Origin: a virus
Taxonomy: Duplodnaviria; Heunggongvirae; Uroviricota; Caudoviricetes
Virus record (IMG/VR): IMGVR_UViG_3300045988_149737
Strand: one strand, 5' to 3'
Length of the DNA: 64,000 bases
The notes under the pieces were generated by a model, which ran no database searches, was not told the origin of the DNA, and saw only the letters and a list, made by a program, of their open reading frames with translations. The stretch's first letter is position 1. Each line of letters begins with the position of its first letter. The translations under genes were made by a program, and so were the position numbers. Below, piece after piece: positions 59,651 through 60,292 of this stretch.

Positions 59651-60292
59651 ATGTCTAGTATTTCCGAAGCACATATGTTCGCCGCTGGCGCTCATGGTGG
59701 CGTTGGTCAGAAAAGAAAATATACCGGCGAAAACTACATCAACCACCCGGTTGCTGTCCGAGAGATTGTTGCATTGCATGACGGAACCGTGGAGATGCAA
59801 ATCGCGGCGCTTCTGCATGATGTGGTCGAAGACACCCATGTAACCATAGAGATGGTTCGTGATCACTTCGGTGAGCGCGTAGCTGAAATGGTTCAGGCTC
59901 TGACCAACATTGCAAGGCCAGAAGACGGCAATCGAATACAGCGTTTCATCATCAATGTCCGGGAGCTGGAGCAAAATCTCGACATGCAGACGCGCATGAT
60001 CAAGCTGGCTGACCTGCTCGACAATACCTCTTCTATCGTGAGTCGCGATCCTGAGTTTTCAGCTATCTACCTTGCAGAGAAAGAGCTGATGCTGGACGTA
60101 CTTTTTAACGGGAAGGAGATTGGTGCCAACGCTGATGTTGTCGAGTACATGGAGAGGATAGGTATAGAACACCCGTTGTTATTAAGCGCAAAGGCGAAAG
60201 TCACTGAAGGTATTGCGCTTCTGAAACCGGTACACATCAAACGTTATGAAAAACACAAATCGCTGATCTGGAGCGCGTGGGAGGCTGCATGA
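59651..60292 (+). CDS. small alarmone hydrolase (RelA/SpoT-type HD domain)
   Basis: AHGGVGQKRKYTGENYINHPVAV...AALLHDVVEDT matches the SpoT hydrolase signature H.GQ.RK..GE.YI.HP...AALLHDV.EDT. Confidence 0.7.
   Translation: MSSISEAHMFAAGAHGGVGQKRKYTGENYINHPVAVREIVALHDGTVEMQIAALLHDVVEDTHVTIEMVRDHFGERVAEMVQALTNIARPEDGNRIQRFIINVRELEQNLDMQTRMIKLADLLDNTSSIVSRDPEFSAIYLAEKELMLDVLFNGKEIGANADVVEYMERIGIEHPLLLSAKAKVTEGIALLKPVHIKRYEKHKSLIWSAWEAA

Follow-up and report, generated by a model that had tools for sequence, protein, structure and literature searches.

The 64,000-nucleotide virus record IMGVR_UViG_3300045988_149737 of IMG/VR (hereafter the window, meaning the whole stretch of DNA analyzed) carries near its 3' end a gene for a stand-alone small alarmone hydrolase (SAH), which is the subject of this report. 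The open reading frame (ORF) occupies positions 59651..60292 of the plus strand, begins with ATG, and encodes a protein of 213 amino acids, the stop codon being included in these coordinates. By identity and gene order it is the ortholog of PaSpo, the SAH of phage SSU5, and the window belongs to a phage-plasmid of the same supergroup. The elements of the gene, with the codons of the residues considered below, are as follows.

59651..60292, plus strand: coding sequence of the SAH, ortholog of SSU5_099 (PaSpo), recognized as an ORF and by its HD_4 and PHROG 990 matches and RelA/SpoT homolog (RSH) hydrolase fold
59641..59644, plus strand: ribosome-binding site GGAG, 6 nt 5' of the ATG, read from the sequence and kept in SSU5
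59714..59716, plus strand: codon of R22, predicted substrate-phosphate-binding Arg of motif HD1, within the invariant Q20-x-R22-K23-Y24-T25; aligns to R24 of MESH1
59744..59746, plus strand: codon of H32, predicted first metal-ligand His (H-P motif), invariant; aligns to the INHP of MESH1, SpoT, and Rel
59816..59833, plus strand: codons of H56-D57-V-V-E60-D61, the HD dyad and ED motif of the predicted catalytic center, with H56, D57, E60, D61, and T62 invariant; aligns to the LLHDxxEDT of SpoT, Rel, and MESH1
60011..60025, plus strand: codons of D121-L-L-D-N125, predicted last metal-ligand Asp and conserved Asn, with K118, D121, and N125 invariant; aligns to the KLADxxxN of SpoT, Rel, and MESH1
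60131..60289, plus strand: C-terminal extension of about 50 amino acids (residues ~161 to 213), three modeled helices, present only in the phage-plasmid clade of the SAH family

An earlier note, made from the letters of the window alone, had described the product as a complete RelA/SpoT hydrolase signature in 213 amino acids without a synthetase domain and had proposed a search with the HD_4 profile as a check. That description was borne out. The Pfam model HD_4 (PF13328) matched residues 8 to 135 with 67.8 bits against a gathering cutoff of 27.2 (E = 1.2e-18); the cutoff of HD (PF01966) was likewise passed, and no other Pfam domain scored above threshold. The long-RSH model TIGR00691 was matched only at positions 1 to 123 of 687 and the SpoT equivalog of NCBIfam only at positions 23 to 152 of 702, in each case the hydrolase part of the model, and both scores lay well under the full-length cutoffs. 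Neither the Pfam nor the NCBIfam profiles detected a synthetase (RelA_SpoT), TGS, or ACT domain. PHROG 990, a family annotated as metal-dependent phosphohydrolase, also matched the protein (1.4e-54), and the top sequence matches in the PDB were the hydrolase domains of SpoT and Rel (Acinetobacter baumannii SpoT 7qps and 7qpr, E about 1e-13), followed by MESH1 and bacterial SAHs. The gene is a real, intact, single-domain hydrolase of the RelA/SpoT type and carries no synthetase domain. With a hydrolase domain only, in a complete gene that is preceded by a ribosome-binding site and flanked by unrelated genes, it belongs to the SAH class.

Active site and fold of the hydrolase

Conservation was assessed in a family alignment of 43 homologs sharing 43 to 88% identity. 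R22-K23-Y24-T25, H32-P33, H56-D57, E60-D61-T62, K118, D121, and N125 were invariant throughout, so that the metal-binding His and Asp residues, whose retention on proper alignment the earlier note had made decisive, are all in place (H32, H56-D57, and D121). The RSH motif set HD1 to HD6 is complete, comprising Arg R22, His H32, His-Asp H56-D57, Glu-Asp E60-D61, Asp D121, and Asn N125. In a HMMER alignment to human MESH1 the corresponding residues are R24, H35, H61-D62, E65-D66, D122, and N126 in the numbering of that protein. By homology, Mn2+ would be held by H32, H56, D57, and D121, the E60-D61 pair would activate the water that cleaves the 3'-pyrophosphate from the ribose, and R22, K23, and neighboring basic residues would bind the phosphates. 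From the intact motifs, together with the in vivo phenotype of the SSU5 ortholog described below, we infer that the protein cleaves the 3'-pyrophosphate of (p)ppGpp or (p)ppApp in a Mn2+-dependent manner.

An AlphaFold2 model, computed on the homolog alignment with the SSU5 row left out, was all-helical and of high confidence (predicted local distance difference test score [pLDDT], 96.6; predicted template modeling score, 0.92). When the model was compared with the PDB by Foldseek, 38 of 38 matches at E <= 0.001 were RSH hydrolases, among them MESH1, Drosophila Mesh1, the Pseudomonas aeruginosa SAH, Corynebacterium glutamicum RelH, a Leptospira SAH, Thermus thermophilus Rel, and A. baumannii SpoT, with a template modeling (TM) score of 0.82 to MESH1 (3nr1_A). 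MESH1, the P. aeruginosa SAH, RelH, and the Leptospira SAH thus share the fold and the metal and catalytic motifs of the window protein (TM score up to 0.82). Their identity to it is 21 to 28%, however; they lack the three-helix C-terminal extension of about 50 amino acids, and they are chromosomal housekeeping or immunity enzymes. The hydrolase domains of the long RSHs SpoT and Rel have identical HD motifs and gave the best PDB sequence matches, whereas the window protein is without their synthetase, TGS, and ACT domains and is therefore expected to escape the allosteric control that the remainder of such a long enzyme exerts. The helices of the extension span residues 161 to 170, 175 to 189, and 193 to 212 and were modeled at pLDDT >93; in the 43-homolog alignment, more distant SAHs stop at about 165 to 180 amino acids and do not have it.

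Compared with the SSU5 ortholog, the protein has 27 amino acid substitutions, 18 of which fall in the C-terminal third and none at an invariant column. The ratio of nonsynonymous to synonymous substitution rates (dN/dS, Nei-Gojobori) between the two genes was 0.18 overall, 0.11 for residues 1 to 140, and 0.26 for residues 141 to 213. This pattern of substitution indicates that the gene is under purifying selection and encodes an intact enzyme rather than a remnant.

Relation to PaSpo and the replicon

The closest characterized relative is SSU5_099 (AFL47026.1), annotated as putative guanosine polyphosphate pyrophosphohydrolase/synthetase. It is likewise 213 amino acids long and is 87% identical to the window protein over the full length without a gap. 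Gene order is shared with SSU5, and the next gene there, SSU5_100, encodes a product that is also 87% identical to the protein downstream of the SAH in the window. Because of this full-length identity and synteny to SSU5_099, which is the protein named PaSpo in PMC7229694, we assign the window gene to the PaSpo subfamily of SAHs as its E. coli phage-plasmid ortholog. The two proteins agree in length and catalytic residues, and their genes in neighbors, including the overlapping downstream gene, and in residence on an SSU5-supergroup phage-plasmid replicon; they differ in host (Salmonella for SSU5, E. coli for the window), in an extra small upstream gene in SSU5, and in the 27 substitutions.

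Much is already on record for PaSpo. The subgroup was defined in 2011 by Atkinson et al. (PMC3153485). When coexpressed in E. coli, SSU5 PaSpo neutralized all five toxic small alarmone synthetases (toxSASs) against which it was tried, namely CapRel, PhRel2, FaRel2, PhRel, and FaRel (Jimmy et al. 2020, PMC7229694, Table 1), and the same study discussed phage-encoded alarmone hydrolases as a means by which incoming phages could bypass alarmone-mediated defense. Four of these five toxSASs were later shown to pyrophosphorylate tRNA at its 3'-CCA terminus, a modification that SAHs reverse; PaSpo-SSU5 is reported to remove the modification installed by FaRel2, leaky expression being enough. The enzyme has since served as a detoxifying helper for the expression of CapRel-SJ46 (PMC9712102) and of PhRel2 as well. 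The proposal in the earlier note that a hydrolase of this kind might counter alarmone-based defense toxins is therefore supported through the 87%-identical ortholog (PMC7229694), in which the suggested rescue from toxSAS/CapRel-type toxins is already documented. A caveat is that for four of the five toxins the relevant substrate is the pyrophosphorylated tRNA 3'-CCA end and not an alarmone.

Two other SAHs invite comparison. C. marina ATfaRel, the type IV antitoxin SAH of the FaRel toxSAS operon, is, like the window protein, a single-domain RSH hydrolase, and it neutralizes all tested toxSASs enzymatically; it adjoins its toxin, however, whereas the window SAH is an orphan with no toxSAS found on its replicon. 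An SAH from a virulent phage is also stand-alone and phage-encoded and neutralizes the identical five toxSASs (PMC7229694), but it belongs to another SAH subfamily and does not reside on a phage-plasmid. The protein family, its SSU5 member, toxSAS neutralization, and the counter-defense hypothesis were thus all published between 2011 and 2020. The new details added here are that the gene is an accessory, plasmid-only gene, that it is under purifying selection, and that no toxSAS partner was found on a related plasmid. As the toxin neutralization by the ortholog had already been demonstrated, the finding is correct but ordinary.

The earlier note had also placed the gene on a phage-plasmid, and this is confirmed. 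E. coli plasmid pRHB14-C22_3 (CP057798.1), a circular, non-mobilizable molecule of 108,954 bp, matches a 2-kb region around the SAH with 100% identity, and phage SSU5 matches the region with 87%. By local BLAST the entire 64-kb window is collinear with CP057798.1 at 96 to 99% identity, a level at which the window is a close relative of that plasmid and not the same record. CP057798.1 carries phage structural genes (major capsid, portal, terminase, tape-measure, and tail-fiber) together with plasmid genes (ParB-type and AAA partition proteins and a DUF1778/GNAT toxin-antitoxin pair), as well as replication and nucleotide genes (DNA polymerase III alpha, primase, ligase, nrdAB, thyA, and dihydrofolate reductase [DHFR]). 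The locus is common to SSU5 and to pECOH89, one of the matching plasmids, which has been described as an SSU5-like phage-plasmid. The window accordingly belongs to a phage-plasmid of about 109 kb in the published SSU5 supergroup (PMC7969092).

In PLSDB the SAH gene was found on 143 plasmids (48 from Escherichia, 41 from Enterobacter, 39 from Salmonella, and 14 from Citrobacter), and its flanks were found on 293 (Escherichia, Enterobacter, Salmonella, Citrobacter, and Shigella). It occurs in 41 of 5426 complete E. coli genomes (0.8%), always on a plasmid and never on the chromosome. Within the phage collection, close copies were confined to SSU5 and Klebsiella phage pJN2-26, while distant SAHs (<=50% identity) were present in about 240 further phages. 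The SAH is an accessory, plasmid-only gene. Several relatives are altered: in one (P0010; 186 amino acids, 38 member sequences) an AAA-ATPase-like N terminus is fused just past the HD dyad and the HD motif is gone; in a chimera from Enterobacter hormaechei (P0012) the N terminus of the upstream Ead/Ea22-like gene is fused to the middle of the SAH; a third (P0011) is truncated to 139 amino acids; and in an E. coli protein of 231 amino acids with 63% identity (P0009) the catalytic HD has become HG. Judging from these variants, the gene has repeatedly been lost or remodeled among close relatives.

Probable counter-defense and competing roles

The SAH most likely provides a broad enzymatic counter-defense against toxSAS abortive infection, acting as a PaSpo-type hydrolase; we put the probability of this reading at roughly 0.7. 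An SSU5-type phage-plasmid would enter or reside in a cell that carries a toxSAS of the CapRel, PhRel, or FaRel type, and the SAH would reverse the product of the toxin, its likely substrates being (pp)pApp, (p)ppGpp, and tRNA with a pyrophosphorylated 3'-CCA end. Reversal would keep translation and the ATP/purine pools running. The ortholog neutralizes the (pp)pApp synthetase FaRel and the tRNA-pyrophosphorylating toxSASs alike (PMC7229694), and we infer that this exact protein may do the same and may act in this way during natural infection or lysogeny. Ecology is consistent with such a role. CapRel systems are known from Salmonella phage SJ46 and E. coli prophages (CapRel-SJ46), from Enterobacter (CapRel-Ebc), and from Klebsiella (CapRel-Kp), and these host genera are those of the SAH-bearing phage-plasmids. 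Position also counts in its favor, the SAH being an accessory gene in a mosaic "ea"-type early region near a DNA methyltransferase, as is typical of counter-defense cargo.

Several observations weigh against counter-defense. Our literature search found no phage-borne SAH shown to protect its phage in a toxSAS-bearing host, and the neutralization data come from the SSU5 ortholog rather than from this allele. A 2025 survey that applied DefenseFinder to over 1200 phage-plasmid contigs of the SSU5 group listed no anti-defense genes in Salmonella elements and only Rad in those of E. coli and Shigella; being absent from that list, the PaSpo SAH escapes current anti-defense catalogs, and the phage-plasmid surveys that we found in the literature do not mention the gene. 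Many SSU5-type elements have no SAH or have decayed copies, and the gene is therefore dispensable. With regard to expression, a promoter and terminator scan of the region upstream of the SAH gave no more matches than expected from shuffled sequence. A more specific version of the proposal, which we hold tentatively and at somewhat less than even odds, is that the SAH is an uncatalogued broad-spectrum anti-toxSAS of SSU5-type elements that works during natural infection or while the plasmid is resident, that its uneven distribution, with about half of related plasmids having it, tracks host toxSAS content, and that the C-terminal extension adapts the enzyme to pyrophosphorylated tRNA over free alarmones.

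The main competitor, which is compatible with counter-defense but considerably less probable, is a reset of the stringent response, in which the SAH would lower host (p)ppGpp so that the phage-plasmid replicates or grows lytically in starved, slow-growing cells. The catalytic center is identical to those of the (p)ppGpp hydrolases Rel, SpoT, and MESH1; the stringent response can restrict phage, and the T7 portal protein Gp8 inhibits RelA/SpoT (bioRxiv 10.64898/2026.01.27.700999). The nrdAB, thyA, DHFR, and MazG/PRA-PH-like pyrophosphohydrolase genes of the element would fit a reprogramming of nucleotide pools. However, we found no documentation in the literature of (p)ppGpp hydrolysis by an enzyme of the PaSpo subfamily, some SAHs do not hydrolyze (p)ppGpp, and the functional data on the ortholog concern toxSAS neutralization only (PMC7229694). 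Lysogenic conversion is an unlikely role. Here the plasmid-expressed SAH would protect the bacterium, rather than the phage, against the (pp)pApp-synthetase toxins of competitors, such as Tas1-type effectors of type VI secretion systems or MuF polymorphic toxins. Neutralization of FaRel by the SSU5 ortholog would fit, as would the stable maintenance of the plasmid-prophage in clinical and animal isolates, and an orphan SAH raised the survival of Xanthomonas against Pseudomonas competitors (PMC9765508); yet the gene is part of an extended run of early-type phage genes on one strand, and it is rare and often lost.

Still less probable is a metabolic phosphatase like MESH1, with NADPH or another 2'- or 3'-phosphorylated nucleotide as the substrate in place of an alarmone or tRNA. 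The best structural matches of the model were MESH1 complexes with NADPH and 3'-phosphoadenosine 5'-phosphosulfate, and SAHs can be promiscuous; but identity to MESH1 is 27 to 28%, features beyond the common core are needed for activity on NADPH, which is weak even in the one studied enzyme, Mesh1-L, and the phenotype demonstrated for the ortholog is toxSAS neutralization. The idea that the SAH is the type IV antitoxin of a cis-encoded toxSAS, and so half of a plasmid addiction module like that of ATfaRel, is effectively refuted. Operons of this kind exist in C. marina, and the SAH stop codon overlaps the start of the next gene. The 180-amino-acid product of that gene, however, has neither an RSH-synthetase domain nor its fold, and its family (PF26211) is common in prophages without an SAH; the upstream genes are Ead/Ea22-like and Eaa-like; and toxSASs are reported not to be plasmid-localized (PMC7229694). 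No RelA/SpoT synthetase is annotated on the 109-kb relative, as read from an incomplete PLSDB gene table rather than from a profile scan of every ORF in the window. A toxSAS partner in cis was rejected on these grounds together with the absence of a PDB match to the downstream model, and since no RSH synthetase was found among the neighbors or annotated on the related plasmid, the SAH is regarded as an orphan. That the gene is a decaying, nonfunctional remnant might be suggested by the truncated, chimeric, and HG variants among its close relatives, but is contradicted by the full-length copy in the window, with all catalytic residues, low dN/dS relative to SSU5, and no substitution at an invariant site.

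The counter-defense reading matters on two counts. Enterobacteria are known to defend themselves by abortive infection through toxSASs, CapRel among them, and an enzyme that erases the product of such a system would be a plausible general countermeasure; moreover, phage-plasmids of the SSU5 type are in circulation among clinically important E. coli, Shigella, Salmonella Typhi, Enterobacter, and Klebsiella. If the reading is true and is demonstrated during actual infection, an enzyme that erases the work of a tRNA-targeting immune effector would be a newly documented class of anti-defense, though both the protein and the idea are published. PaSpo is already a laboratory tool, and the window offers no special handle on its natural role beyond SSU5 itself; work on that role would follow up a protein already known and would not amount to a discovery made in the window.

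Flanking regions and further genes of the element

Two features adjoin the SAH gene directly.

59532..59650, plus strand: upstream intergenic region of 119 bp, conserved by sequence comparison, with a hairpin at 59562-59582 and the palindrome TGTGA-N6-CCACA at 59612-59627
60289..60831, plus strand: downstream gene of 180 amino acids, PF26211 or "phiTE_072 family" (recent RefSeq annotation), its start codon overlapping the stop of the SAH gene (ATGA); product 87% identical to SSU5_100

The palindrome is near-consensus for a CRP-like site and is centered about 30 nt 5' of the ATG. As a repeated operator it found no support, with 2 matches in the window against 0.95 expected, which is not significant. 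The intergenic region is largely kept in SSU5 and is near-identical, to about position 59630, in phage Cyrano, which has no SAH. The genes upstream also occur in Cyrano, CMS-2020a, and PhiR41_1, as does the intergenic region until some 20 nt ahead of the SAH start codon, beyond which the sequences diverge. At the position of the SAH, Cyrano carries a homolog (48% identity) of the window ORF at 60831..61274; the SAH and the 180-amino-acid gene therefore form a two-gene indel relative to Cyrano.

The model of the 180-amino-acid protein (pLDDT, 86.8) combines an N-terminal four-stranded sheet with a helical bundle, and two adjacent cysteines, C127-C128, are invariant. It had no Pfam match in the local library and no significant fold match in the PDB. 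Its gene has plasmid counts similar to those of the SAH, and both are absent from Cyrano. As a dedicated partner of the SAH it was nevertheless rejected, because chromosomal prophages commonly have it, as does phage EC.W1-9, where no SAH is present; it is also missing beside the 42%-identical SAH of phage Bas82 and so is not a specific partner. The N-terminal third of PHROG 3451 (a 287-amino-acid profile) was matched by residues 13 to 101 of the ORF at 58447-59151, and its C-terminal two-thirds by the ORF at 60289-60831. The two pieces evidently form one protein in some phages, and the "ea"-type region is highly mosaic.

Two genes upstream of the SAH, positions 56700-58385 (plus strand) encode a 561-amino-acid protein that combines DUF4942 with a DNA-methyltransferase region at its C terminus (PHROG 6263, E about 5e-299). 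It is probably an anti-restriction methylase, which would fit the block being an anti-defense or accessory region. On the other side, a UmuD-like S24 peptidase (PF00717; PHROG 811) is encoded at 63553-63942 (plus strand) and is annotated as a DNA repair protein on the related plasmid. The gene at 45355-46224 (plus strand), beside nrdAB, thyA, and DHFR, encodes a 289-amino-acid protein with a PRA-PH/MazG-type nucleotide pyrophosphohydrolase domain (PF01503, E = 1.3e-08), a second nucleotide-pyrophosphate-cleaving enzyme of the element.

Genes for four tRNAs (Asn-GTT, Tyr-GTA, Thr-TGT, and Ser-TGA) form a cluster at 12902-13555 (plus strand). Among the targets of toxSASs are tRNA-Gly and tRNA-Thr, both attacked by FaRel2, and isoacceptors of their own can let phages evade defenses directed at tRNA; that a tRNA-Thr gene occurs alongside a putatively tRNA-repairing SAH may be due to chance or may not. 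Past the 3' end of the window, the related plasmid carries full-length metG, for methionyl-tRNA synthetase, and apbC (CP057798.1 77195-80486; L002 11320-14001), a plasmid-borne aminoacyl-tRNA synthetase being unusual cargo for a phage-plasmid.

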